Shown: in pieces, positions 2,039 through 58,767 of the stretch | Position numbering within the stretch: the first letter of the stretch is position 1 | Layout of the letters: each line of letters begins with the position of its first letter | Origin: a virus | Lineage: Duplodnaviria; Caudoviricetes | Length of the DNA: 58,981 nt | Virus record (IMG/VR): IMGVR_UViG_3300031785_000001 | Span: 1-58,981 of that record | Reading direction: 5' to 3' (one strand) | Translations under genes and position numbers: made by a program | The notes under the pieces: generated by a model | Databases searched by the model: none | What the model was told of the DNA's origin: nothing | What the model saw: only the letters and a program-made list of their open reading frames with translations

Positions 2039-3517
2039 TTAACCCCATAACCAATGTTTTGATGCGTTTTCCTCTCGTCCAGACCCCCACTTCTGTTTAC
2101 CCCATGAACCTACTTCGTCAAATAAGTCTCTGCCTGTAGCGGCTACACCTGCACCTGCTCGTTGAGCGTCATCTAAAGCATTTTGATAAGTCTGACTTGC
2201 GGCTGTCATCATTGCACTAGACAAAGCACTATTATTTCCAAACTCTTTAGTTCCTATGCTCATGGAGTAAGGATTGTAAACTCCTGTAGGAAGTTGATTG
2301 GCTCCCATATAAGCGGCAGTTCTTGGATTTAACCAAGGTGCAAGACGAGACATTCCATAAGCCCTGTCTCCTCCATCATAGATACCAGAACCTATAGCTA
2401 CAGGAGCGCGGTAATCATTGGCAGAACTTATATCTCTATTAAGTATTCCTGTTGGAGTTCCTGCTAATAGATTTAAGTAACCTCCAGCAGACGCCTCTTC
2501 AGGTAATAAGTTTAAGTATTCCAGACCTGCGCCAGCTAATGCACCTCGGTCTTGAATCATAGCTTTCCTTTGACCCATGATTGTTCCGATGTTTTGATTT
2601 AGTGCATCCGTTTTGCCAGTTATATAACTCAATGCATCGTCATAGGCTTGGCGTCTTGCGTCTTGATACTTGTCTGCAATTTCCCTTGTAATGTTTGCTC
2701 GTCTCATTGTCCCCGGAGTTGACATATCTATACCACCACGAATTAAATCAGCTTCATTAATTGAAGCTGTTAATGTAGCGGCTCTGTCTACATCTCCTTC
2801 GTATTCTCTTGAGCGTCTGTTAAATTCATCAGCAATCATTCTTCCATCTAGTCTTGCAGGCTGAGGTATGAATGGTAAATCTTGTTCAACACCTGCCACA
2901 GCAGAACTATATGCATCTATCCTATCTAAGATGTCTTGCCTTTGAGCTAAATCTAAATCTCTTTCTTGTTGGTATAAGTCTCTAGCACCAGCATATTCTG
3001 CTTCATAGAACTCTCGTTCTATTTGCTTTTCTTCCCTATCTTCTAAGAATCTAATTAACTCTTCGTCTCGCTCACCACTGGCTATTGCTTGAGCTTCTTT
3101 AAGTTGCTCAATAGCAAATGCCCTTTCTTCTTCAGCCAAGTCTTGACGCTCAAGTATTGTAGTAAGATAAAGCTCTTGCATCCTTGCGGCTTCTTTGTCT
3201 TCCTGAACTTGTCGCCTTATGCTTTCTGCTCTTTCAGATAGTATCCTTTTCTTGTAGTCACGAAGCTCGTCTTGTGCAAACCGCCTTTCCTCGCTAGTCT
3301 GCATACGATTAAGTCTTTCCATGACTCTACGATAGGCGTTCTCTTCTCTTTGGGCTTTTTGGTCAGCAAGAGTTATTGCAAGGTTTGCACCTTGCATTTC
3401 ACGAGTTCTTTCAAACTCATATTGCTGTTGCGCTAGGGCGGCTGAGGCTCTTTTATCGGCTTTGTTAGCACCGTATATTGAACCTGCAAACCCTAATGCC
3501 GCACTAAATAAACCCAT
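2039..3517 (-). CDS. Internal virion (DNA ejection) protein
   Basis: N-terminal MGLFSAALGFAGSIYG Gly/Ala-rich helix then coiled coil; position after tail genes; AGGAGG RBS. Confidence 0.65.
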   Translation of the reverse strand: MGLFSAALGFAGSIYGANKADKRASAALAQQQYEFERTREMQGANLAITLADQKAQREENAYRRVMERLNRMQTSEERRFAQDELRDYKKRILSERAESIRRQVQEDKEAARMQELYLTTILERQDLAEEERAFAIEQLKEAQAIASGERDEELIRFLEDREEKQIEREFYEAEYAGARDLYQQERDLDLAQRQDILDRIDAYSSAVAGVEQDLPFIPQPARLDGRMIADEFNRRSREYEGDVDRAATLTASINEADLIRGGIDMSTPGTMRRANITREIADKYQDARRQAYDDALSYITGKTDALNQNIGTIMGQRKAMIQDRGALAGAGLEYLNLLPEEASAGGYLNLLAGTPTGILNRDISSANDYRAPVAIGSGIYDGGDRAYGMSRLAPWLNPRTAAYMGANQLPTGVYNPYSMSIGTKEFGNNSALSSAMMTAASQTYQNALDDAQRAGAGVAATGRDLFDEVGSWGKQKWGSGREENASKHWLWG

Positions 3518-23375: not shown

Positions 23376-25004
23376 TTACATTAATCCCCAGCCTTGCCAT
23401 GTTGCTTTTGCTTTCTTAACTGTGTCTGCTAATGATTTACCCAAATCTTTATCCCTGTTGTTATTCAAAGATAGCTGTGGGTTTGCATGCATTTCCCATG
23501 CGTCTGGAGAGACAGCAGTTCTAGATAAAACATCTAAAGCAATAGTCATGGCGTCCACTTGGTCGTCATGGTTGCCGTTTGGAAAAGAAACACTCTCATC
23601 TATAAACGCATCGAGCCAAGGTGCTTCTTCTGGAATAAAGACTCTACCTCCTTCTATGAGAGGGAGAATCGTATTTGTTCTTGCTACTTTATCAGTATTC
23701 ACTTTATATGGAATAACAGATACGCCAGATTCTCTTTTCATTTCTTGTATAAGAGATTGACCACTGGCTTTATCTTCTATGTACATACCTCGGAGACCTT
23801 TGCCTCGCCATACATTATTAAGTCTTATTATTCTTTGTTTAAGTTCTGGAAAGTCATACTTGCCTCGCATTATGTCAACAAGGTATATGTCTCCGTTCTT
23901 ATCCATTCCAGCAACTACAGCAACGCTGTAGTCTGCTGTTTCTGTTTTCTTGAACGCTGTATCAACCCCTATAACTAAAGTGACAAAATTTTCTGGAGAT
24001 AAATCTACTGGGTACTTTCGCCACCATTCTGTTTTTATTAAGTTACCCCCTTCTATGTATGGTTGTTGCTGATACAGGGAAGCGAACTCTCGTGGGTTTA
24101 AGCGTTCTCTTCTTTTTAAGTCTGTTAAAGGAAAGCGTTCTTCCCATAAGGATTCTTCTTTTTCTGTTTCTATGTATCTCTTTTTGTGGGATAGATTTCT
24201 AAACTCATCTGGAGTCACCCAGTTGGGGTCATCTTCTTCTAAATGCCGTCTTGATATTTTCCCAGACTTAACTTTTTTTATAGCTGGAAAGTTGATGTGC
24301 TTCCATCTGCCTTCTTTCCAGTCTTCTGTATCCATAAGACGCCCAGCAAGGTCATCTGGATGCCAGCGAGTTAGGATTACTATTTGTTTAGGCGTTGTCC
24401 CATCATGCTCTGGCTGAAGACGAGTTGCTAATGCTGATGTGTAATAGTTCCATGTCTTGTTACGCTGGGTCATAGACTCAGCATCCTCACGAGACTTGAT
24501 AGGGTCATCCACTATTAATAAGTTTGCAGGACGACCTGATGTTGTACCTCCTACGCCAACAGCAAAATACGCACCGCCTTCTTCAGTTCGCCATACATCT
24601 GCCGCTCTAGACTCCTGTGAAAGTCTAAATGTTTCAAATGCCTGTGTAATTTGTTTCTGCTCTATGATTCCCCGAACTTGTCTACCAAAGTCTGTAGCAA
24701 GCTGGCTGTTATATGAGCAAGACATAATATATCTGTTAGGATTCCTAGCCATATACCAGCAGGGGAACAGCATTGTAGAGAATGTAGACTTTGCATGTCT
24801 TGGCGGCATGGTTATTAAAAGGTTGTCTGCGTCTAGCGAACCTTTTTCTAGTCTATCTAGGGCGTCTATTAGCTCTAACTGAAAGTCAGCTATTTCCCAT
24901 TCTGGATAAATTAGTTTTACAAATCCTAAGAATCCGTCTTGGGCGTCTTTAAGCGTTAATAGGTATTTAGCTACCTGAGCTTGTGATAATTTTGCTTTCT
25001 TCAT
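23376..25004 (-). CDS. terL: Terminase large subunit
   Basis: MPPRHAKS Walker A, LLIVDDP Walker B, TRWHPDDL, LYQQ, VDTA, FPNGNHDDQVDA. Confidence 0.95.
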   Translation of the reverse strand: MKKAKLSQAQVAKYLLTLKDAQDGFLGFVKLIYPEWEIADFQLELIDALDRLEKGSLDADNLLITMPPRHAKSTFSTMLFPCWYMARNPNRYIMSCSYNSQLATDFGRQVRGIIEQKQITQAFETFRLSQESRAADVWRTEEGGAYFAVGVGGTTSGRPANLLIVDDPIKSREDAESMTQRNKTWNYYTSALATRLQPEHDGTTPKQIVILTRWHPDDLAGRLMDTEDWKEGRWKHINFPAIKKVKSGKISRRHLEEDDPNWVTPDEFRNLSHKKRYIETEKEESLWEERFPLTDLKRRERLNPREFASLYQQQPYIEGGNLIKTEWWRKYPVDLSPENFVTLVIGVDTAFKKTETADYSVAVVAGMDKNGDIYLVDIMRGKYDFPELKQRIIRLNNVWRGKGLRGMYIEDKASGQSLIQEMKRESGVSVIPYKVNTDKVARTNTILPLIEGGRVFIPEEAPWLDAFIDESVSFPNGNHDDQVDAMTIALDVLSRTAVSPDAWEMHANPQLSLNNNRDKDLGKSLADTVKKAKATWQGWGLM

Positions 25005-26039: not shown

Positions 26040-26300
26040 GGAGGTGGCGATTTGGCGAAAACGGACGCGGGCGGGGACGCCCCGCCCCCCACTGCGCAGA
26101 ATCGGGCATATCCTAGTCCCAAAAGCCCGCAAACCCTTGATTTCCCTAGGTTTTCCGTCCCTTGTTAAGGGATTTTTAGCCCTTCTCGCGTGTATGCAAG
26201 ACGCAGGCGTTTTGAGTTCCTTGCTCGCAAGACCGATTTCGATAGGTTTTTCGCGCATGAGTGTAACCATTTCAGCAACTTAGCACCAAAGCCGAGGTCA
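26040..26300. other. Candidate packaging-initiation/genome-end region
   Basis: GC-rich divergence point; GGGCGGGG-ACG-CCCCGCCC palindrome (26069-26087); exact IHF consensus on minus strand at 26130-26142. Confidence 0.45.
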
Positions 26301-26308: not shown

Positions 26309-26315
26309 CACGCGT

Positions 26316-26341
26316 AGTCCCGAAGGGACTTAAGGGGTGAG
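26316..26341 (+). promoter_or_regulatory. Early motif copy A: AGTCCC-GAA-GGGACT hairpin / AAGGGACTTA-N4-GTGAG
   Basis: Repeated at 28230-28248. Confidence 0.4.
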
Positions 26342-26802: not shown

Positions 26803-26851
26803 ACGCAAGTGAGGGCGCAAGCCCTCGCTTGTGTGTTTTTTTGTTTTTTTT
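26803..26851 (+). terminator. Intrinsic terminator
   Basis: ACGCAAGTGAGGGC-GCAA-GCCCTCGCTTGTGT then long T tracts. Confidence 0.85.
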
Positions 26852-26872
26852 CATGCGCAATAGGAGACAGCT

Positions 26873-27079
26873 ATGCGAGTAAACAACGAGCGAACAAGAA
26901 CGATACTTTCGGCTATCGGCTATGTCGCGTTCACAGTCCTCTTCGGGCTGTTCATGGGCGTGATAGTCGTTGAATGGCTAGTAGGTTGTGGAGAGAAAAT
27001 CTACTACGCGGACGGAACATGGGTAACAGGCGAATGTATTTTTGTCCCATACGAGCCAACAACAGGCGAGTGGGGTTAA
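26873..27079 (+). CDS. Small membrane protein
   Basis: AGGAG RBS; one TM helix then GCGE..YYADGTWVTGEC. Confidence 0.75.
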   Translation: MRVNNERTRTILSAIGYVAFTVLFGLFMGVIVVEWLVGCGEKIYYADGTWVTGECIFVPYEPTTGEWG

Positions 27080-27145
27080 GACGAAATCCGCCCAATCGGG
27101 CGGGTAAGTGTGGTGTGAGAGACCACGCTCTGATGAGTCATCTCA
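27080..27145 (+). ncRNA. Type II hammerhead ribozyme with loop I-3' tail pseudoknot
   Basis: GAC-GAAA-[UCCGCCC aauc GGGCGGG]-UA^-[AGUGUGGU gugagag ACCACGCU]-CUGAUGA-GUC-A-UCUCA; complete catalytic core. Confidence 0.92.
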
Positions 27146-27165
27146 ACTAGCAAATGGAGGTGCTA

Positions 27166-27501
27166 ATGCACATTCAATTTATCGCATGGTCGAGCGAGAA
27201 TCGACCAAACAACGAGTGGCGAACGATACAAACAGGCGACATCAGTCCTGAGTTTTCTCTAGACGAGAACGGACTTGAAGAAACTAGCTTGTCTTGGTTC
27301 TTCGCAACCAAGTTTGATGAGCGAGGCAGTATCAACCCTGACGCAGAGCCTTGCGAGTCTTTTAACAACAACCCAATCATCTTACACGAGGGAGACATAC
27401 GAGAATTATCTCGCATGCCTAGTGCGTCAAGAGATTTTATCGAATTTGCCAAGAGTGCTATGGCAGACGATAAATGCGTGTATGTAGATGTATCTTGGTA
27501 A
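27166..27501 (+). CDS. Acidic hypothetical early protein
   Basis: GGAGG RBS at 27156-27160, ATG 27166. Confidence 0.7.
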   Translation: MHIQFIAWSSENRPNNEWRTIQTGDISPEFSLDENGLEETSLSWFFATKFDERGSINPDAEPCESFNNNPIILHEGDIRELSRMPSASRDFIEFAKSAMADDKCVYVDVSW

Positions 27502-27512
27502 GGAGGGAAACT

Positions 27513-28103
27513 ATGCCAAATTGGTGTGAAAACATAGCCACAATATCGCATGACAACAAAGAGTCCATGCAACCATTAGTCAATGCTCTCAAGAGCGTTA
27601 CGCAAGCGAGAAAAGAATACTATGACAAGCTAGACAACGAGTCTGTCACGGATACTTTTCAGGTGTGTTACGAAGCAAATTATGACGACTGTCCTGAGTT
27701 CTTTCAGGCAACACACCCAATGCCAGACGAACTTAAGGGAACATCATCCCCACAGGATAGCCCTAACTGGCATGACTGGAGACTAGCAAATTGGGGAACA
27801 AAGTGGGATGTCCGATACGACTCCCTCAAAATCCACAGCATGTCTGACACGAGCATAACAGTTCAGTTCGACACAGCTTGGTCTCCACCTCAAGAGTGGT
27901 ATGCGCACATGAGATTGTGGAATTTCAAGATAGACGCATACTATTTCGAGGGTGCTATGGACTTCTGCGGTCTAGACACGGAAGAGGACGGAGAAGAGAC
28001 CTACTCTTGCAGTCAACTAGACTTGATTCCAACTCGCATAGACCAGTTATTCGGTATCTCCGAATACTACAAGGAAATGGAAGAAATGCAGGAGGATGAA
28101 TAA
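27513..28103 (+). CDS. Api92/YubB (DUF1281)-like ferredoxin-fold protein
   Basis: MPNWCEN, WHDWRLANWGTKWD, FDTAWSPP, YFEGAMDFCG. Confidence 0.8.
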   Translation: MPNWCENIATISHDNKESMQPLVNALKSVTQARKEYYDKLDNESVTDTFQVCYEANYDDCPEFFQATHPMPDELKGTSSPQDSPNWHDWRLANWGTKWDVRYDSLKIHSMSDTSITVQFDTAWSPPQEWYAHMRLWNFKIDAYYFEGAMDFCGLDTEEDGEETYSCSQLDLIPTRIDQLFGISEYYKEMEEMQEDE

Positions 28104-28198: not shown

Positions 28199-28243
28199 TT
28201 CATTATGCGCAGGTCTGCGCTTCCCCTGAAAGGGACTTATATA

Positions 28244-28800
28244 GTGAGATTTGAATTTCGAGTTGTTCCGACTCGGAATAGGTCTAGCTGTGTGCTATCA
28301 GGACACATGGCTAGACCAACAAGAATTTGTCTCGGTTGTCAGTTAAGAATCCAATAAAACCCGCATGGCGAACGAAAAGTGTCTAGTGCGTGGAGACACT
28401 GTGGTGGAAAGTCACAGACGACTAAAGGAGACGAGTATAGGTGGGTAATAGCCGTCCTAGGTCACTACCCTTAATTCGTAGAGAATCAGTTGCGAGCTAA
28501 TCTGCGAACCTTCTGCGCGAGGTTATTAGTGCGTGTGTGTCTAGCCAATCTTGTTAGAACTGCTGACACAGTCATCTACCTCGTAGCAGACGAGCCATGT
28601 ATTCAAACATGAATAGACAATCCTCAACATATCCTGTTGGTGCTTTATGCACATATCAGGGGTGGTCACATACTGTAAGGAAGACCACAGCAAGTCGTTC
28701 ATTCGTGTTTGTCTAGTCTTGCACAACGCAAAGGCAAGACAGAGGTATCCCAAGATAGAGAATTGGGAGTTCACCTCGCCACCTAGGGGTGGTATGCACT
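28244..28800 (+). ncRNA. Large (~550 nt) multi-domain structured non-coding RNA candidate, family unrecognised
   Basis: More than 12 hairpins plus nested long-range helices with G-U pairs on + strand; no credible ORF. Confidence 0.65.
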
Positions 28801-28814
28801 TCTACTCCTAGGAT

Positions 28815-28855
28815 TTGACATTAGGTGTAACGCATATTATACACATACCTAATGT
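28815..28855 (+). promoter_or_regulatory. Sigma70-type promoter TTGACA-N17-TATACA with overlapping 9-bp inverted repeat
   Basis: ACATTAGGT(28818-26)...ACCTAATGT(28847-55). Confidence 0.6.
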
Positions 28856-28898
28856 GCTTTAACTTTAATTTTAACTTTAACCATTTACGGAGGTAAAT

Positions 28899-49146: not shown

Positions 49147-52100
49147 CTACCATTTATTACCCCATCCTTTTTGCCATTCAGAACCCCAGCCGTTTTGTTT
49201 TTTCTTTCGCCCGGTTGGTTCTCCAGCTACTGCATCAGTAATACCTTCTCTCCAATCTCTTACACCACCAACGATTGGTATTCTAGTAGCAACAGTTCTA
49301 ACCGCAGTTCTTTCTTTAGCGTTGCTATCTGTGCTTCCTAGGATTGCATCTTTCACGCCACCCATGACATGAACTGAGTCTTGGAAGAGACCTACAGAAG
49401 GACCGCCAATGTTAGACATAAGTCTGTTAACCCCATAAGCTCCGTTGTCTGCTTGGGTCGCCGCGTTATGCGCAAGCTCTCCAAAAATTCCAAGACCACC
49501 CATATGCATTATGCCTTCCATGTACCAACCTAAGACATCATGCTCGTTGCCATGTATCTTTTCGTCATAACCCATAAACTTTAATGCGTTCCTAACTCTT
49601 ACATCAGCTTCTCTTTCTGTGTCTCCACCTCTAAGCTGTATTGTATCTTTTGCCGCTAGAGAAAAAGCACCAAAGGCAGGTCCAACACTTAACGCATACA
49701 TAAGAGGAGCCTTTCGCCCATCCTTTTTCATAGCTTCTTTCCATACATCCCAAGACATCTTTTGCATCATCAATGTAAAAGACTTAAGCTGGAATATCAT
49801 TGCGCCCCAAGGAGTTTGCGCCCACAAAGGTATGTCATTTTGATTCGGCTGGAAGATAGATTCATCAGCAAATCTTATTATTGCTTGTCTTAACTCTTTA
49901 TCATCTGCAAATTTTGTCAATGCTTCAGTAGAATCTAAAGACACTTTACCTTCATTACCTTCTGGTAAAAACTTCTCAAGACCATATCCTTTTAAATACC
50001 TATGAGCTTGTTTGTATTCAACGCTTTGTTTGTCAAAAGATACTCTAGGATTGTAATGTCTATTAGCTTTTGCCTGCATGGTCTTGAATGATTCAAACCC
50101 TACTGAGCCAGCGAACTTTCTGTTTAAATCCGTCCAAGGAGTTAGTAATGTTGTATTAAAGAAGGCGTTACTTAACTTACTACCTGTTCCGCCATACATA
50201 TAAAGCTGTCTTTCATGCAGAATGTTTTCTATAGCAACACCTGTGTTATACATGAAACGCCTATAGTCAGGGTCTCTCGCCCACTTACTTAAACCTTTAA
50301 CATAATCTTGCATTGAGCCAGACCTAATAAGAGGTAACACAAGGTCTCCAAGAGATGTAAGAGTTGTAAATCCTAATAATGATATATTGTTAAAACCTCT
50401 TACGGTCTTAGACATTTTCATTAATGCTCTGTTGTAATCAGCATCTTGTGGCTTCTTCATTGCTACCGCTAAAGACTTGTCCATAAATCTAAAGTCTTCA
50501 TTAGTCCAGCTAGGAGCTTTATCTCCTTTAAAGTCTTGTAGTGCGCCTAGTATTGCTTCGGCTCTCTTTACATAGCCTTCAGTTGGAATACCAGAACTAT
50601 CGACAGGAGCGACATCCATAAGAAGTTTTCTAGCAGAAGCTATTCCGTGTCTTTGATACTCTTCGACAAGACCATCAACAAATGCACTAGCCTCACCTTC
50701 TCTATTCAAGAAAGGCATGGTCACAGTATCGGTTAAATCGTACTGAGTCATATTGCCGTCTAAATCTAAACCATATTTATTCCAAGTAAACTCTCTTGGT
50801 GTTGACAATAATTTTGCTATGCCAGATTTACCATGTTCAGCAACATGCATGTAGTCATACCAAGCGTGGGAATTTATACCTAGTTTTTCTGTATGAGCTA
50901 ATCTTCTGGAGCTTCCCTCAAAATACTTAGTAAGCAAGAACTCTAAGTCATGCTCAAGAAACTCTTCCATATTAGCCATATGGTTAGGGTATTTTTCTAA
51001 CTCTATAACTCGGTTGTAATCAATGGCGTCTGATGTTGGGTTACGAGAACCTCCTCTATGAGGAATAAACACACCATCTGAACCTTCACCAGCTAAAGTT
51101 TCATACATCCTTCTAGCAAACTCTTGAGCGTCTGCTTCATTAACCATCTTACCGAAACCAGCTTGCTCATCTATATAGTATTGCCTCATACCTTCTAAGA
51201 ATTTACCTCTATTCTTATCTATAGCTTCTTTGTTCCAGACTTGAGGTAAATAATTTTCTCTTCTTCCCACCATAATTCCAGCTTGGGTTAAAGATTGATG
51301 CTCTGTTTCAAAAGCATTTCTTACATCATCATAGATTTCTAATTCTTGTTTACTTAAAGCAGAATGTTGTCTTGAGCCATCACCGTTCCTTAAGGCTCTA
51401 ACTATTCTTTGATAACTTTCAGGCTGTGTGTCACGAGTAAAGAATTGTCTTGGACCTCTTCTGTACCAAGAGTTTATTCTTCCGTGAGCGTCTGGAAGTT
51501 TCCTTAACTTTTCTTGTATTGGGAAAAACTTACCAGCAAATTTCTGCTGTACATCTGAGAAGTGCTGTTTGTACCAATCGGCTATCCAGTTAGCACCCAT
51601 TCTTTTCATTCTTCCAGATTGAGAAGAGAAAATTTTACCAACCGAATTATCCTTAAGAGCCTGTTCTTCATTTGCGTTTAGCTGTCTGCCTTTAATCATA
51701 GACATCATTGCGCCACTAAGACTTGAGTCGCCACCAGCTTTTTCTACTGACTCTCCAATAAGCCCCGGATTAATTGCATCAAGACCGCCTAATTTCTCAG
51801 CCATCATTGCTTCAATTATTCCACCGTTTATAGCTTTAGGAATACCAGCTTCTGGGGAATGATAAAGTCTTGCGTCTGCCTCATTAAACTCAGCCGCGTC
51901 AACATGCTTTACATTAGCTGTGTCAAAAACCAAGACGCCTTTATGACTTACGAAGTCTCCTTCATATGTTTCTTGGTTTCTCATTTTAGGAGTGCCATCA
52001 ACATTTGTTGTGTTGAAGTGTGTAGTTATAATTCCATCATAACCCAAGTCTTCTAATGCTCCATTAAGTTCTGTCTTTGCTTGATGCATACCTCTGCCAG

Positions 52101-55100
52101 AATCTCTAAGGAGTTGAGTAAGAGCTAAATATGTATCTCTTCCGTTTGTTGGGTTAGATAACTTATCAGAAAATTCTCTTATAGCTTTAGGTTTAATGCT
52201 GTCTGTGGCTTGGAAGTATTCTAATACTGCGCCTACCAATCCATCAGATATATTATAAGAAGCACTCTTTTGGAAGTCGGCAGGATTCTGGACATTCACA
52301 TATAAAGGAATAACCAGTGGGTCAGTTGTAATGCCGTGCTTAGTTAGGTTGTCTAAAGAAGCCTGTTCCATTTCGACAAGCTCATCTAATTCTTTTTTCA
52401 ATACAGATAGTCTTGTCTTGTCTTGGTCTCCAACATTCTCAAGATAGTAAGCCCTTCTCTTAGCAGATATTTCTTTTCTTACATCATGTAAGTCTTGAAC
52501 TTCAAAAATTAATTCTTCTTTTATTTCATCTGTATTATTACTCTCCATGATAGCTCTGTGTTGAGATTCTGGAGTTGGCTTCTTTGCGTATGTCTGACTA
52601 GCAACACTTGGGTTGTCTGATATATAAACCCCCGGTCCATAAAAACCATTAACACTTGGGTTCAAGACAACATCTGGATTGTCTGCTCTATTAAAAGCAT
52701 ATCCGTTAGGTGTGCCGTGATAGAAAGTTATAATCGAATCTACTTTAGGATTGTATCCTAATCCATTTCCTGTAAATTCTTTTATCTTTTCTAGTCTCCA
52801 CTCTGGAGAACTTAAAACTAAATCGTTTACTGCATTGGTTGCATTTGATGGGTGTAAGGCTGGTCCGCTCTTAGCTATAGCATCAGACATAGGAGCAACA
52901 TTTGGCTTCTCAAACATATCGCCAAACATCACAAGTCTTCTGAACTCTTGTTTAATGCTGTTTCTACCAATCAATCCGTTAACAACATAAGCTACATATT
53001 CAACGGTTCTATCTATCGCTCTTTCAAATGCGTTCCTTAACTTAAGATTAGACACATCACGATTAAGAACTGAGTTTAGTAAGTTTCCTTTACTTACTCG
53101 CTCTGACATATATAAAGCTAGTTGCTCAGAGAACCATTCTTCGGCTAACAAATCTTCTAAAGATTCATTTGTGTAATCCGCATATTTACTTGCATACTGA
53201 CTATTAATTTTTGTTTTAATTATGTCATCAGCACCTCTATACAAATCTACTATAGCTTGCTTTTCATCAGGCTTTAATGCGCCAGACCTAATGACCATAT
53301 GACCAACTTCATGCATAGCATCAAAAGGTGTAGCCGTATCTTTGTTTAAGCCTATAGCAACTCTTCTTAAATCCTTTCTTAACTTATTAAACTCAGGAGT
53401 TTTGGTGTCATAAAAAACTGCCGCGCCAATTTTTGAAGGCTTTACTCCAGCTAGTTTTGCTACAGTTTCTGTAGAAATAATATCTACTTTGTCTAGGTTT
53501 TCTTTTTGAGTTTTATTAAGAAGGTTAAACATCCTATAACCAAGAGTTCTAGCTGTGTACTGAATCTCTGGGTCTCTGTGTGTAACATAACTAAGAATGT
53601 CTCTAATAGAAGCGCGAGCAGAAGCAGGTATGCCATCAGAAGAAGACACTCCAACGCTATCTTTTATTTCTGTTTCTATAACTAAGTTGGTCTCAGTAAA
53701 CTTAGGTTGAATTATTTGCTGACCTGTAGACTTAAGACCTTTGTTAGTATATCTGCGCCTCATTTCATAACTAGCTTGGTCTATTTTTGTAGTGTTGTTT
53801 TCTGCAAGACCATTAAGCATGATGTCTTCTAATTCTCTACCGCTCATATTCTTCATTTCTGGAGGAATAGGAACAGCCCTTGCTGGAAGAGAAGTAGCTT
53901 TGTTTTTTCTAAGAAGCTCTATAGCAATTTGGTCGCCATACTCTGTGCCTCTATGCTCTACATAAAGTTTTCTTAGTTCTTCAAGACCAATAGACTTAAC
54001 CTCTTTGGCAGTCTTCTTATCTAATTTCTGGTTGTATTTAGAAGTTCTAGGTCTATCTTTGGGTGCAGTTTTAGCTGTCTTTAGTGCTTCGTTATCAACA
54101 GCTTCTACAGATTTTCTATTTTGATTCCTTGCTCTCTTAAGCGATTTACTTGAACGACTTCGTCTCGACTTCTTACTGTTGTCTAACTTTGGCTTTCCAG
54201 CTAAAGCACGACCTTCTGTCTCTGAGTACCTAGCTTTTAAAGTTTGTTCAATAGTATCTAGAGTATTAGACAAAGATGTCTTGCCTATATTTTTGTCTGT
54301 TACTTTTGCTGGCAATCCGTTAGCTGGTTGGAATACACCTTCATATCCGTTGTAATAAAAATCTCTCAACCTATCAGCAACTTCTTGAGGGTCAGCAACC
54401 TCTGTAAGACCATCATCTATATAATCATTAGATGTCTTGCCTTCTACTTTAGGACCAAGAATCATTTCATCAATATCATCTATCCTATTATGAATAAGTG
54501 CTGTTCTTTTTCTAAGAGGGATAAACGACTGAGGAAGTTTCTCATCTGGGTTTGCATTTATTCTTCTACCCAGCCTAATCTTTGGATTTGTAGATAGCAT
54601 TATTTTAACTAATGCTTTATGCGCTTCAATTATTCCATCAGCACTATCTCTTAAGAAAGCATCTTCTAGGTCTGCTCTTGCTAATGTGTATTCAACATAA
54701 CGCTTGTTAATATGTTTACCAAGTTCTGTCTTTGGTTTGGCTTCTACACCTAATTTAAACTCAGCCCTTTGTGCAGGAGGGAGTATCTTAGAGAATAAAG
54801 GCTCTAAGTCTGGGTCTATTTCTACACCTTGAGCGTAACGCTTGAAGATAGCTTTCATCTTTCTCATTACAGAGGTCCAGAAATTATCATCTCCAGAAAG
54901 ATGCCTTTGTCTTGTAGCCCATAATTCAAACTGATTAGCAAACAGTTCTGCTGGAGACTCAAACATATTGGCTATTTTTATTACGCCATCAGGGTCAACA
55001 GGACCAACTCTTCGCATAATAGACATGTTGTCTACGCCACCGCCATCAACATAATACTTCTCCATCCCCTTCCAGAATGTCGCTCTTTCTTGAGGAGTTA

Positions 55101-58100
55101 AAATATTAAGATAAGCCCAGTGAGCTACCTCATGGTATAGGGGAAGACTGCTTGGTACTTTAGGGTGAGGAGTTGAAGATAAAGCTACTTGTTCTCCTGC
55201 GTCTGTGTATTGAGTACTTAAATTATTTGCGTCTCCAGAATCAATAAATCTAGGACCAACAGTATTATCGCCGCCAAGTTTTTCTATGAAGTCTACAGCG
55301 TTTTCTATTTCTTCTGCTGAATACTTTGAGAACAACGACCTAATATCTTCTACAGACCTAGCTCTAATGTTGTCTGGTTGCACATAACCTTCAGGAACTA
55401 TCTCATCCATAAGGCTATAAATTTCAGAAAGTCTTGAAGCATGCTCTCTGTGGTATTCAACAGTAGGCATCCATTCGGCTGTCTCCATATCTCTACTAAA
55501 TTGCTGTAAATCAGAAGCAGTATTTAATTCTCTTGGATTATCTGGATTAGCTTCTCTCGCAACTTTTTGTAGTGCTTGGAAAGATTCTCTTTCTTTTATT
55601 TCGTCTGGAATAATTCTTTCATGCAAATCTAGTATGTTCGTAGGCTCACCTACACCAGTTGCATCTCCAACATATAGCCTTTGACCTGCTGGTCTTGCGC
55701 CTTCCTCTGCTGGTAAGGATTCAAACAGCGCACTTAAGACTCTAGCATTTGAAGTCCAATCTTCTTTCGGTGCGTATTTAAACTCCCAATTATCTGGGTC
55801 AGATTTAGGTCCACCTTTCTGACCTATAATAGCTGTAATGTCTTTACCATCTTCAGCTTGTTTGCGGTTAATCATCCTTACATCAGTAGGGTCTATTGTG
55901 CTTCTTGCGATAAGAAGTTTGTCTCCCTTTGAAACAGGTTGATGTAGTTTAGGTGTCTCTGTCTCAACTGGAGCATCACCTGAGCGTTTCTTAGTAACCC
56001 TAAGTAATTCCCTAAATTGGTCTAGAGCTAATTCTGGCTCTCCATTCTCAGCAATAGTAAGAATCTCTCGGAGCTTAGTAGCATCTGTATTAGGAGTAGG
56101 CTCTGGTGCTGATTCAGTACCAAGCTCTGGTGCATTATCCCTAACGACTTGAGGTTCTTGAAGTTTCCTTTTTGGCTCCCCTCCTTCTCTTACTTGCACG
56201 GCTAATTCTTGAGATTCGTATGCTCTCTTTGTAACTCCATCAGCATAAAGAGTTGTCCCAGCAGGAACTTCTTTAATACCATTTGCAGTTATTACTCCCC
56301 TCATTGGATGAGTTGTAACAAAAGGAACTATGTCTGGTCCTGCTTTGCCGTCACCATAAGCCACAGCGTTCTGTGCTTTTATAAGAGCTTCATCAAAAGC
56401 AAACTCTGTCGGATTAACAGCGTCTATTGTTCCGTGCTTGGTGGTTCTCCTCATAAAGGATTGGATTCTTCCAGCAGAAGTTTTACCAGCACTTCCTACA
56501 AAACCAATATCTTTGTCGGAGGCAAAGATATTTGCTTGTTCTATTCTTTCACCAGTCCCTCTAACTGGAGTTGGGTCAACCTCAGACACCCTAAGAACAT
56601 TGTCTGTAGCCATTCTTTCTGCTACCAAATCGCTTATGCCCGGATATTGTTTCTTAATGATTCGGGTTTGTTTTTTAATAGCTTTTTCTTGCGTCTTGGT
56701 TAGCTTGATTTCCATTCTCTGCGAACCGCCAGTAGGCGCATTTATGTGCAGAGCATCAAACAAAGCCAGTATGTCGTCTGTAGATACTGGAGTTCCTCTT
56801 GCGAGAAGTGCTACTCCTCTTCTTAAATCTTCGGTAGGAATCTCTCCTAAATCTTTTAGCTCATCAAGTATCCCAGACAATTCGTCTTGAACTTGAGTGG
56901 CATAGGCACTAGGCTCTCCTCCTTTTTTAACTTCAGCATTAACTGTAGCTTTCGTTATCTTCTTACTTTTTCCTCTAGGTTTTAAGGCGTTAGGGTCTAT
57001 GCCATTCATTAAGGCATGACCTTTTACATCATCTTTAATTGAGAATATTTCTTCTGGTACGGAATCTTCTACTAGATTACTGGTTTCATTAACTTCCACA
57101 TCCGTCTTAGGCATAGCCTCGTCTGTGTCTACAGTTTTCTGTATACCAGTTAACTCTTCATCATAAGCCTTTAATGTATTGTTAGTTACTTGCTTAGGTT
57201 TCTTCTTGCTTCGGCTTAATGGTAGAGGATTTTCAGTGTCGTTAATTCTTGCCCTGAAGTCTTCTTCTGTAACTCCGTGTTTTGCAAAAATCCTTTTAGC
57301 TTTTGCGCCAATTCCTGCTGTTGAATAGGGAACAGGTGCGTCATCTTCTATAACTTTAGGAATACCTGTGTCGGTTGTAGTCGCCCCTGCGGTTTCAGGA
57401 GAGAGAGGTTCTGTTGTTCCTGATTCCGCAGGGACTTCAACTACTTCAGCTTCACGGTTTAGGGAGGAATCAGCCGACCCTTCATTCGACTGAACTTGTG
57501 AAGCGTCTGTGGTTGCCTCTGCACTTGCGCCATCTGCACGAGTGACTAATTCTTCTCCGTCTGGACCATCAACACCATTTACCGCCGCTCTCCAATCAGC
57601 ATAATCATCTTCAAACTTAGATACTCTAGCTTCTCTTTGTTTGATTTTAGCGGGGTCTTGTTCATCTACATTAAAACCAACAATCTGCTCTTGTTCTGTT
57701 TTAAGTCTTGCAGACATTTGTCTTAGTCTACTTATTCTTTTTACTACTTCACTCTGAGCGACCCATTCATCAGAATCTCTTCCATGAGTCTGAGCAACTT
57801 TATCTAATTGCTCTCTAGCATCTCTTAATTTTTCAACTAATAAATCTTCTTTAGCTTTGAAGTCCGCTTCCTCTACAGAAACCTCCTCTACAACTTCCTC
57901 AGCTTCTGTCTCAGGAGCCTTAGCGTCTTCGTCTATCTTTGCCTTAGTTTGCTCAACTAAATCTTCTGGAGTAGTTCCTGCTCTCTCCATAGAAACTACA
58001 TCATCAGCTTTCCAGCCAAGTGCCTCGGCTTCTTGTACTGGCTTTAATGCGCCTCTTGTTCCTACCGCACCACCGACACCACCAAGACCACCACCTATTA

Positions 58101-58767
58101 CACCGCCTGCGACTCCTCCGACTGCTGTAGATAATCCAAGTTCTCCAAGACTAAACTCGTCTCTAAGACCAATATTTTTTTCTGTTATTTGGTGGGCTGT
58201 ATTAACTAGACCTTCTTGACCAGCACTAATACCGCCTTCAATTATTGCACCTCTTTTTGCACCAGCTTTTACGCCAGCCCATGTAGTATTTTTCCCAGCC
58301 GCGTAAGCCGCTCTAGCCGCTTGACCAGCAGTTGTGAATCCTTTTACTGGAGCTATAAAGTTTGTTGGGTCAGCAACCATTGCTGGTACTGCGTCTTTAA
58401 CAAACTCCCATGTTCCCCTACCACCTTCTTCCCAGAAATCTGGGGAAGCGTTATATACTTGAGCTATTCTATTGGCTCTTTCTTTCTGCTCTTTGCTGTA
58501 TCCGCTAGACTGATATGCTTCTTTACCAGCAGAGAAAACATTTAAGAACTGCCATGTCTTGTCTGAGTAGAGCTTATCTACTAAGTCTTCGTCTGAAAGG
58601 TTGTGGGTGTTTTCGCCTTTTTCGTAATAGAAATCACGAAGGTCTTTAAGAAATCGAGGGTCTGACATAGCGTTTCTAGGGTTAGAAACAACTTCAGATA
58701 CATAATTCCCTGCCGAATTATTATTGCCTATGTCATTTTCGCCATAGACTAAATTAAATTTACTCAT
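49147..58767 (-). CDS. Giant (3206 aa) polyvalent internal virion protein with two zincin-like HExxH modules and an ADP-ribosyltransferase-like domain
   Basis: HEVAH..ELFA, HEVGH..EEWF, FYHGT..FYGPGVYISDN..LGYDGII; follows the ejection proteins across the origin. Confidence 0.75.
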   Translation of the reverse strand: MSKFNLVYGENDIGNNNSAGNYVSEVVSNPRNAMSDPRFLKDLRDFYYEKGENTHNLSDEDLVDKLYSDKTWQFLNVFSAGKEAYQSSGYSKEQKERANRIAQVYNASPDFWEEGGRGTWEFVKDAVPAMVADPTNFIAPVKGFTTAGQAARAAYAAGKNTTWAGVKAGAKRGAIIEGGISAGQEGLVNTAHQITEKNIGLRDEFSLGELGLSTAVGGVAGGVIGGGLGGVGGAVGTRGALKPVQEAEALGWKADDVVSMERAGTTPEDLVEQTKAKIDEDAKAPETEAEEVVEEVSVEEADFKAKEDLLVEKLRDAREQLDKVAQTHGRDSDEWVAQSEVVKRISRLRQMSARLKTEQEQIVGFNVDEQDPAKIKQREARVSKFEDDYADWRAAVNGVDGPDGEELVTRADGASAEATTDASQVQSNEGSADSSLNREAEVVEVPAESGTTEPLSPETAGATTTDTGIPKVIEDDAPVPYSTAGIGAKAKRIFAKHGVTEEDFRARINDTENPLPLSRSKKKPKQVTNNTLKAYDEELTGIQKTVDTDEAMPKTDVEVNETSNLVEDSVPEEIFSIKDDVKGHALMNGIDPNALKPRGKSKKITKATVNAEVKKGGEPSAYATQVQDELSGILDELKDLGEIPTEDLRRGVALLARGTPVSTDDILALFDALHINAPTGGSQRMEIKLTKTQEKAIKKQTRIIKKQYPGISDLVAERMATDNVLRVSEVDPTPVRGTGERIEQANIFASDKDIGFVGSAGKTSAGRIQSFMRRTTKHGTIDAVNPTEFAFDEALIKAQNAVAYGDGKAGPDIVPFVTTHPMRGVITANGIKEVPAGTTLYADGVTKRAYESQELAVQVREGGEPKRKLQEPQVVRDNAPELGTESAPEPTPNTDATKLREILTIAENGEPELALDQFRELLRVTKKRSGDAPVETETPKLHQPVSKGDKLLIARSTIDPTDVRMINRKQAEDGKDITAIIGQKGGPKSDPDNWEFKYAPKEDWTSNARVLSALFESLPAEEGARPAGQRLYVGDATGVGEPTNILDLHERIIPDEIKERESFQALQKVAREANPDNPRELNTASDLQQFSRDMETAEWMPTVEYHREHASRLSEIYSLMDEIVPEGYVQPDNIRARSVEDIRSLFSKYSAEEIENAVDFIEKLGGDNTVGPRFIDSGDANNLSTQYTDAGEQVALSSTPHPKVPSSLPLYHEVAHWAYLNILTPQERATFWKGMEKYYVDGGGVDNMSIMRRVGPVDPDGVIKIANMFESPAELFANQFELWATRQRHLSGDDNFWTSVMRKMKAIFKRYAQGVEIDPDLEPLFSKILPPAQRAEFKLGVEAKPKTELGKHINKRYVEYTLARADLEDAFLRDSADGIIEAHKALVKIMLSTNPKIRLGRRINANPDEKLPQSFIPLRKRTALIHNRIDDIDEMILGPKVEGKTSNDYIDDGLTEVADPQEVADRLRDFYYNGYEGVFQPANGLPAKVTDKNIGKTSLSNTLDTIEQTLKARYSETEGRALAGKPKLDNSKKSRRSRSSKSLKRARNQNRKSVEAVDNEALKTAKTAPKDRPRTSKYNQKLDKKTAKEVKSIGLEELRKLYVEHRGTEYGDQIAIELLRKNKATSLPARAVPIPPEMKNMSGRELEDIMLNGLAENNTTKIDQASYEMRRRYTNKGLKSTGQQIIQPKFTETNLVIETEIKDSVGVSSSDGIPASARASIRDILSYVTHRDPEIQYTARTLGYRMFNLLNKTQKENLDKVDIISTETVAKLAGVKPSKIGAAVFYDTKTPEFNKLRKDLRRVAIGLNKDTATPFDAMHEVGHMVIRSGALKPDEKQAIVDLYRGADDIIKTKINSQYASKYADYTNESLEDLLAEEWFSEQLALYMSERVSKGNLLNSVLNRDVSNLKLRNAFERAIDRTVEYVAYVVNGLIGRNSIKQEFRRLVMFGDMFEKPNVAPMSDAIAKSGPALHPSNATNAVNDLVLSSPEWRLEKIKEFTGNGLGYNPKVDSIITFYHGTPNGYAFNRADNPDVVLNPSVNGFYGPGVYISDNPSVASQTYAKKPTPESQHRAIMESNNTDEIKEELIFEVQDLHDVRKEISAKRRAYYLENVGDQDKTRLSVLKKELDELVEMEQASLDNLTKHGITTDPLVIPLYVNVQNPADFQKSASYNISDGLVGAVLEYFQATDSIKPKAIREFSDKLSNPTNGRDTYLALTQLLRDSGRGMHQAKTELNGALEDLGYDGIITTHFNTTNVDGTPKMRNQETYEGDFVSHKGVLVFDTANVKHVDAAEFNEADARLYHSPEAGIPKAINGGIIEAMMAEKLGGLDAINPGLIGESVEKAGGDSSLSGAMMSMIKGRQLNANEEQALKDNSVGKIFSSQSGRMKRMGANWIADWYKQHFSDVQQKFAGKFFPIQEKLRKLPDAHGRINSWYRRGPRQFFTRDTQPESYQRIVRALRNGDGSRQHSALSKQELEIYDDVRNAFETEHQSLTQAGIMVGRRENYLPQVWNKEAIDKNRGKFLEGMRQYYIDEQAGFGKMVNEADAQEFARRMYETLAGEGSDGVFIPHRGGSRNPTSDAIDYNRVIELEKYPNHMANMEEFLEHDLEFLLTKYFEGSSRRLAHTEKLGINSHAWYDYMHVAEHGKSGIAKLLSTPREFTWNKYGLDLDGNMTQYDLTDTVTMPFLNREGEASAFVDGLVEEYQRHGIASARKLLMDVAPVDSSGIPTEGYVKRAEAILGALQDFKGDKAPSWTNEDFRFMDKSLAVAMKKPQDADYNRALMKMSKTVRGFNNISLLGFTTLTSLGDLVLPLIRSGSMQDYVKGLSKWARDPDYRRFMYNTGVAIENILHERQLYMYGGTGSKLSNAFFNTTLLTPWTDLNRKFAGSVGFESFKTMQAKANRHYNPRVSFDKQSVEYKQAHRYLKGYGLEKFLPEGNEGKVSLDSTEALTKFADDKELRQAIIRFADESIFQPNQNDIPLWAQTPWGAMIFQLKSFTLMMQKMSWDVWKEAMKKDGRKAPLMYALSVGPAFGAFSLAAKDTIQLRGGDTEREADVRVRNALKFMGYDEKIHGNEHDVLGWYMEGIMHMGGLGIFGELAHNAATQADNGAYGVNRLMSNIGGPSVGLFQDSVHVMGGVKDAILGSTDSNAKERTAVRTVATRIPIVGGVRDWREGITDAVAGEPTGRKKKQNGWGSEWQKGWGNKW

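Follow-up and report, generated by a model that had tools for sequence, protein, structure and literature searches.

The closest described relatives of the element reported here are the type II hammerhead ribozymes of Rfam family RF02276, which combine a full core with a very short stem II, pair loop I with bases that follow stem II in a pseudoknot, and lie in intergenic phage settings (PMC3088659). The type II consensus given in that work places the pseudoknot between loop I and the 3′ tail and accepts a stem II of only 2 bp. Hammerheads that flank genes of prophages, such as those in the ardA region of Agrobacterium tumefaciens and in other prophage clusters, are described there as lying in pairs or triples in phage polycistronic RNA, among varied small genes; their cleavage is shown both in vitro and in E. 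coli, and their proposed role is to process the polycistronic RNA into shorter mRNAs (PMC3088659). Three type II hammerheads near phage-like genes of Desulfovibrio vulgaris are likewise reported to cleave in vivo, and the ends that hammerhead cleavage leaves are given as a 5′-OH and a 2′,3′-cyclic phosphate (PMC8782182). The purpose of such elements is left open in a review, which allows that processing could yield transcripts of different stabilities and gives no direction for the effect (PMC6765202). [quoted passage not shown]

The DNA analysed here (the window) represents one complete viral record, 58981 bp long and ending in direct terminal repeats; its nearest cultured phage is Roseobacter phage CRP-810 (large terminase 78% identical). 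On the plus strand of the window, positions 27080-27145 form a complete, pseudoknot-capable type II hammerhead between two cistrons (Table 1). The bases follow one another in the order GAC, GAAA, an 8-bp hairpin, A27106, a second 8-bp hairpin, CUGAUGA, GUC, A and UCUCA, which is the type II permutation, with stem II open and stems I and III capped. All positions given for these parts in the preliminary description proved right when the plus strand was read base by base. The hammerhead core agrees with the consensus at every position (C3 U4 G5 A6 N7 G8 A9, G12 A13 A14, the A15.1-U16.1 pair and a non-G H17; zero mismatches), and a non-G base at H17 obeys the NUH rule as set out in PMC4191386. 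The three helices comprise 8, 3 and 8 bp, stem III being built from the A15.1-U16.1 pair (A27086-U27105), one U.G wobble and six G-C or C-G pairs. Loop I and the 3′ tail can form five Watson-Crick pairs, where the definition drawn from PMC3088659 calls for at least four; random pairs of a 7-mer and a 10-mer from the window give a 5-bp Watson-Crick match 1.9% of the time. At 66 nt the putative ribozyme is minimal and carries no ligand-binding or extra domain.

Table 1. Parts of the predicted hammerhead ribozyme and its neighbouring cistrons in the window
Feature	Position	Strand	Details
Stem II, 5′-proximal strand GAC	27080-27082	+	Positions 11.3-11.1; pairs with GUC 27137-27139
Core GAAA (G12 A13 A14 A15.1)	27083-27086	+	Matched to Rfam consensus
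Stem III hairpin	27086-27105	+	8 pairs, loop AAUC; in MFE fold
Predicted scissile bond	27106/27107	+	After A27106, H17 of the GUA triplet (G27104 U27105 A27106); from core register
Stem I hairpin	27107-27129	+	AGUGUGGU (27107-27114) with ACCACGCU (27122-27129); 8 pairs, one U.G; loop GUGAGAG
Pseudoknot strand UGAGA in loop I	27116-27120	+	Exact Watson-Crick complement of 27141-27145
Core CUGAUGA (C3-A9)	27130-27136	+	Read from sequence and Rfam alignment
Stem II, 3′-proximal strand GUC	27137-27139	+	Positions 10.1-10.3
Pseudoknot strand UCUCA in 3′ tail	27141-27145	+	One base after stem II; placement fits the type II consensus as given in PMC3088659
Upstream cistron, 68-aa predicted membrane protein	26873-27079	+	From translation; ends TAA 27077-27079
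Shine-Dalgarno GGAGGUG and ATG 27166 of downstream cistron	27156-27168	+	Read from sequence; spacing inside the viral-survey range
Downstream cistron, 111-aa acidic ORFan	27166-27501	+	Two protein clusters only (97% and 82% identity) among 5.8 billion
Next cistron, DUF1281_C (Api92-like) protein	27513-28103	+	Pfam PF18406, E 3.7e-07

Set against the described systems, the predicted element shares with RF02276 all of the features listed above as well as the topology of closed stems I and III and open stem II, and departs from it in that H17 is A where C is usual and the pseudoknot pairs UGAGA with UCUCA where the consensus has one of the GGC/GCC kind. Its position resembles that of the prophage hammerheads; however, these stand in pairs or triples in the account of PMC3088659, whereas the window holds a single hammerhead in its whole 58981 bp, rather than at least two bounding a gene or short block, and so marks only one boundary of the downstream gene block. 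The principle of RiboJ is also recognizable, but here the ribozyme's own stem I would be the hairpin retained and the site lies between cistrons; the likeness is one of functional analogy only and not of membership.

The type II descriptor finds this single site when both strands of the window are scanned, and none of 300 dinucleotide-preserving shuffles of the window contains even a loose version of the motif (stems of at least 4, 4 and 3 bp), so that a chance match is excluded. Scanners for types I, II and III, run over 119 records (1.02 Mb), returned only the window site and one type I motif, a minimal hammerhead at 2456-2508 (+) of the unrelated viral contig L060, 1.5 kb upstream of a DUF1281 homologue. 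Thermodynamic folding points the same way for two of the three stems: stems III and I are contained in the minimum free energy (MFE) fold of both a 69-nt segment (z-score -3.73; 1 of 200 shuffles folds as well) and a 151-nt segment (z-score -3.55; 0 of 200 as good). The full three-stem structure is calculated at -27.4 kcal/mol against -29.4 for the MFE fold, with the pseudoknot uncounted; in the latter, UGAG of the core pairs with CUCA of the tail in a 4-bp hairpin (27134-27145) that rivals the core and pseudoknot.

Comparison with the Rfam model Hammerhead_II, which the preliminary description had named as a check, gave a divided answer. The match is full-length, covering model positions 1-66 with bases 27079-27147 at 33.1 bits (E 2.6e-05 in 231 nt, E 0.0067 in the whole window), and it is the only ribozyme match in the window at E≤1. 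It lies, however, 3.9 bits below the gathering score of 37, and Rfam at gathering level lists nothing for the site. The score is lost at H17, which is A and not C, and in the tail. Furthermore, the two stem II pairs annotated in the model require one inserted base after CUGAUGA in the alignment, and in this register the G10.1-C11.1 pair lands outside the annotated helix, at a cost in score for sequences of this kind.

A scan of viral contigs provided relatives against which both the structure and the low score could be judged. The first viral pattern, with stem II fixed as GAC/GUC, had returned six stretches, of which two were hammerheads by eye (L122 and L123) and four were not. The pattern used here fixed only CGAAA, GUH, CUGAUGAG and the tail UCUCA, leaving loop I free, and recovered 14 stretches; nine of these, with seven distinct sequences between them, are type II hammerheads and have precisely GUGAGAG as loop I. 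By these signatures, the window's putative ribozyme belongs to a viral subfamily defined by loop I GUGAGAG and tail AUCUCA, a group that may already be listed in Dataset S1 of PMC3088659. The comparison loci (L247, L250, L251, L252, L255, L259 and L260) share with the window not only loop and tail but also a near-identical distal stem I and the same placement from stop codon to ribosome-binding site; the distance from ribozyme to the start of the divergent terminase gene is 1.7-2.6 kb in L247, L250, L259 and L260 and 2.08 kb in the window. They differ from it in their flanking genes, which are unrelated to the window's, and in mostly carrying hammerheads in arrays of two to five where the window has one.

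When pairs were counted per sequence by script across the eight distinct sequences (the window and the seven others), compensatory changes were found in stems I, II and III. The middle (second) pair of stem II occurs as A-U, U-A, C-G or G-C; stem III differs in sequence from member to member and is always paired (6-11 bp); and four pairs of stem I vary with compensation, L252 having one C.C mismatch. The claim of an intact pseudoknotted type II hammerhead splitting two cistrons, as the preliminary description had put it, is thus supported from three sides, by the sequence, by the Rfam match and by covariation within the subfamily. The cleavage-site base itself varies: the window and L255 have A at H17, five distinct relatives have C, and L251 has U. 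Five of the seven subfamily sequences score 38.4-44.6 bits, above the gathering score, and the two with a non-C H17 (L251 457-523 and L255 2166-2238) have no Rfam listing at E≤0.1; therefore, the low score of the window reflects a known weakness of the model and not a defect of the motif, and the Rfam threshold misses hammerhead members whose cleavage-site base is not C.

Rfam matches in the eight comparison loci number 21, of which 18 are type II and 3 are type III below threshold, with up to five in a single locus; in these phages the hammerheads punctuate runs of small genes. Five Rfam type II matches lie at L260 2989-5577 and three at L247 4777-5624, a few hundred bases apart, and type II hammerheads are mixed with the sub-threshold type III matches in L252 and L259. 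Among the matches listed, seven type II pattern matches also follow one another at a few hundred bases at L158 4200-6746 (-).

As the preliminary description had stated, the ribozyme begins on the base after the upstream TAA, and 10 bases (27146-27155) separate its tail from the GGAGG that starts at 27156. To set this spacing in context we drew a second sample from the viral contigs with an AGCC-tail type II scan, comprising 92 well-formed hammerheads (87 distinct) from at least 80 loci. A stop was counted as adjacent if it closed an upstream frame of at least 50 codons -1 to +13 nt from the ribozyme, and a start if it was preceded by a Shine-Dalgarno sequence, opened at least 40 codons and lay 12-35 nt after stem II. 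Among the matches listed (n = 87 distinct), 77 have an adjacent stop, 65 an adjacent start and 59 both, compared with 407, 433 and 31, respectively, of 5000 positions drawn at random in these loci. Because the hammerheads were selected by pattern and some of them are related to one another, the counts describe a trend and not independent events. On the same measures the window has a stop distance of 0 and a start distance of 26. All 11 loci of a set made up of the GUGAGAG group, L122 and the window show the same arrangement, with an upstream frame stopping -4 to +13 nt from the ribozyme and a Shine-Dalgarno-preceded start 16-35 nt after the tail. Placement between a stop codon and the next ribosome-binding site is the norm for viral type II hammerheads, and the survey puts numbers to an arrangement, with hardly any spare bases, that is described qualitatively in the literature cited here.

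The wider setting concerns the direction of transcription and the genes on either side. The large terminase gene (23376-25004) and the structural genes run leftward, while a rightward block extends from about 26400 through CobS/CobT-like genes. The ribozyme lies about 0.7 kb into this plus-strand block, which diverges from the terminase and structural block, and this position makes plausible the preliminary description of the two cistrons as early, a label that is inferred only. Homologues of the upstream gene were found by tblastn in 25 related viral loci and in CRP-810 (gp02, 35% identity). In these relatives a small ORF, translationally coupled, comes after it and no ribozyme is present, and in seven of them a DUF1281 gene is next; in the window, the ribozyme and the 111-aa ORFan stand in place of that small ORF. 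The ORFan has no family in Pfam, PHROG or PADLOC, its matches in the protein atlas are only unnamed clusters at 0.92, within the stated chance range, and the viral and metagenome contigs scanned hold no relatives of it. In one of its two protein clusters, P0006, the gene call reads through the 3′ half of the ribozyme. The N-terminal residues of P0006 match a hand translation of the window in another frame, and the ribozyme is therefore kept in that variant; the case also illustrates that gene callers can swallow such an element.

Beyond that variant, the element was sought among the phage's relatives and not found. At E≤0.01, Hammerhead_II has no match in any of the 36 related viral records that have the nearby CobS-like gene in common with the window, CRP-810 has no hammerhead match at E≤1, and neither the region nor the ribozyme alone matches a GenBank phage by blastn; L002, the closest record (CobS-like protein 97% identical), begins past the site. 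Since it is missing from the 36 related records and from CRP-810, the ribozyme is dispensable for this phage family, and as judged from its distribution it is lineage-specific. The paper describing the CRP-810 family contains no occurrence of the word 'ribozyme'. The window thus adds a clean, complete hammerhead to a recently described, globally distributed family of CRP-810-type marine phages, of which 251 genomes are reported (PMC11288001). Though well formed, the element is an ordinary case of an RNA-processing signal already known from phages; none had been noted in this family before.

We propose that the element is a catalytically competent type II hammerhead that would cut a polycistronic RNA between cistrons and cap the downstream message with a hairpin, and we put the probability of this reading at roughly 60%. 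In this model, the ribozyme would be transcribed within the rightward polycistronic RNA. Folding would wait until the ribosome had left the adjacent UAA, where, while terminating, it would overlie stem II and some of stem III. The pseudoknot between loop I and tail would then hold stems I and II parallel, and self-cleavage after A27106 would split the operon RNA. The upstream product, carrying the 26873-27079 gene and anything before it, would close with the GC-rich hairpin of stem III and then UA bearing a 2′,3′-cyclic phosphate, its stop codon 27 nt from the new 3′ end. The downstream product, carrying the ORFan and then the DUF1281 gene, would begin with a 5′-OH flush on the 8-bp stem I hairpin and have a 59-nt leader before its ATG. 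Both new ends would be capped because of the type II topology. Cleavage would in this way uncouple the two halves of the operon and give the downstream genes a fixed, hairpin-capped leader, much like a natural ribozyme insulator. As the preliminary description had suggested, a downstream mRNA with a 5′-OH and a hairpin cap may also escape the RNase E pathway that depends on a 5′-monophosphate, an expectation based on the topology, for which RiboJ provides an engineered parallel (PMC6206723).

Folding calculations bear on one part of this proposal. The Shine-Dalgarno sequence has a predicted unpaired probability of 0.17 both before cleavage, in the precursor, and after it, in the 3′ product; with accessibility unchanged, folding lends no support to an insulating effect on translation. 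Marine RNA data touch the region as well: two runs contain short contigs 90-99% like the window, although these are assembled contigs of low depth from one study and cannot show transcript ends; runs X3 and X4 yielded none. In run X2 the contigs cover 26844-27068 and 27120-27342 and leave 27069-27119 uncovered, a gap that is one among others. With one ribozyme, an ORFan downstream and relatives that have neither, the window offers a simple natural test case for the role of genomic hammerheads.

Two other readings accept cleavage and differ over its consequences. In the first, cleavage would be gated, by ribosomes that terminate at the UAA and overlie stem II together with half of stem III, by the UGAG/CUCA hairpin or by Mg and ionic conditions, and the operon would be split only in some infection states. 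The immediate succession of the stop codon (ending at 27079) and stem II (starting at 27080) would suit such control, as would the alternative hairpin of the MFE fold, and regulated cleavage of phage hammerheads has been raised by Perreault et al. (PMC3088659). Nevertheless, the 66-nt element has no domain through which a ligand could act, and a spacing this tight between stop and ribozyme is the viral norm, which genome compaction fits equally well; we consider gated cleavage distinctly unlikely.

The second would have cleavage lower expression, one of the products being shorter-lived, for example through degradation of the 5′-OH RNA by a 5′-3′ exonuclease of the RNase J type or through loss of protection of the upstream RNA. 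A 5′-OH end can hasten decay where RNase J is present, as is reported for the glmS ribozyme of Bacillus, and this would count in favour of this reading. Against it, both predicted products end in stable terminal hairpins and the new 5′ end has no single-stranded overhang; stable terminal hairpins of this kind generally hinder exonucleases. The cleavage chemistry described in PMC8782182, with its 5′-OH and 2′,3′-cyclic phosphate, is compatible with such decay, and the review allows for differing transcript stabilities without favouring a direction (PMC6765202), but constructs of the RiboJ type are reported to raise expression in E. coli (PMC6206723). Taken together, we regard a lowering of expression as a distinctly doubtful outcome.

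It is also conceivable that the element acts mainly at the level of DNA, as a portable cistron boundary whose roughly 40 nearly invariant bases provide homology for the swapping of small early genes, the hammerhead and the ORFan having been gained as one cassette. The gene order of the relatives, in which the upstream gene is followed by a coupled small ORF and no hammerhead, is compatible with such a gain, as is the ORFan nature of the downstream gene. In L250 and L260 the upstream genes are 81% identical and the hammerheads nearly the same, while the downstream genes are unrelated, placing the breakpoint at the ribozyme; this is, however, the one clear swap pair among 11 loci. Phages whose flanking proteins are unrelated have an almost identical stem I, loop I, core and tail, although the pseudoknot alone explains the conservation of loop and tail. 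In the window itself, neither a repeat nor a second hammerhead bounds the ORFan, and GC content shows no break at the site of the kind that would mark an insertion. A role mainly at the DNA level therefore appears very unlikely to us. A combined version, in which the subfamily hammerheads would serve as portable cistron boundaries in hypervariable early operons of marine phages, both cutting the RNA and providing DNA homology for ORFan exchange, with the window a single cassette newly dropped into an otherwise ribozyme-free CRP-810-type phage, is speculative and, on balance, unlikely. If it were true, each small gene would be cut free with a hairpin on both new ends.

Finally, that the site is a chance match or a dead, non-cleaving relic is extremely improbable, for although its score falls under the Rfam gathering threshold, it stands alone where its subfamily relatives form arrays of two to five and A at H17 is rare (1 of 92 in the AGCC-tail sample, among the matches listed), no shuffle reproduces the motif, every core position conforms, the H17 base is one that the NUH rule of PMC4191386 permits, the pseudoknot is intact and the element is kept in the P0006 relative.

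Returning to the genome that surrounds the proposed RNA-processing site, several further features in and around the rightward block deserve mention. A strong terminator-like hairpin (14 pairs and a T-run) lies at 26803-26834 (+), between the first rightward gene and the upstream ORF, and may limit the transcription that arrives at the ribozyme, a point against the proposed cleavage model. Upstream of that first gene, at 26315-26340 (+), is a hairpin motif, GTCCCGAAGGGACTT, with a 5-bp stem and a 3-nt loop, and looser copies occur at 26158-26180 and 28222-28245 (+). A 15-mer of this motif is found twice in CRP-810 (L245, at about 845 and 1760). The looser pattern [AG]TCCC-N3-4-GGGA[CT]TT has 11 matches on the plus strand and 1 on the minus strand in 357 kb of CRP-810-type loci, compared with 3 in 1.35 Mb of unrelated loci. 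The motif may serve as a promoter or regulatory hairpin specific to the family; promoters are not mentioned in the CRP-810 paper.

Further along, the stretch 28200-28890 comprises about 700 nt with no convincing ORF and has the top contig depth in two marine RNA runs (39.5 and 15.2). The RNA contigs show single-base indels in this stretch, which is 88.7% identical, with gaps, to L002, while the adjacent CobS-like protein is 97% identical. It has no Rfam match and may represent either a long leader or a non-coding RNA. The CobS-like gene is closely preceded, at 28816-28844, by TTGACA and TATACA with 17 nt between them, a pair that the promoter scan did not list; a 37-nt block around it is the only part of 28200-28898 that matches L008, L009, L010 and L023.

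At the far end of the record, an ORF of 3206 aa occupies 49147-58767 (-). The possibility that it encodes an N4-like virion RNA polymerase was considered and rejected, there being no PDB sequence match and, in Pfam, only an ART-PolyVal match below threshold. PHROGs weakly assign it as 'virion structural protein', and the product may be a giant virion protein or an ejected polyvalent protein.
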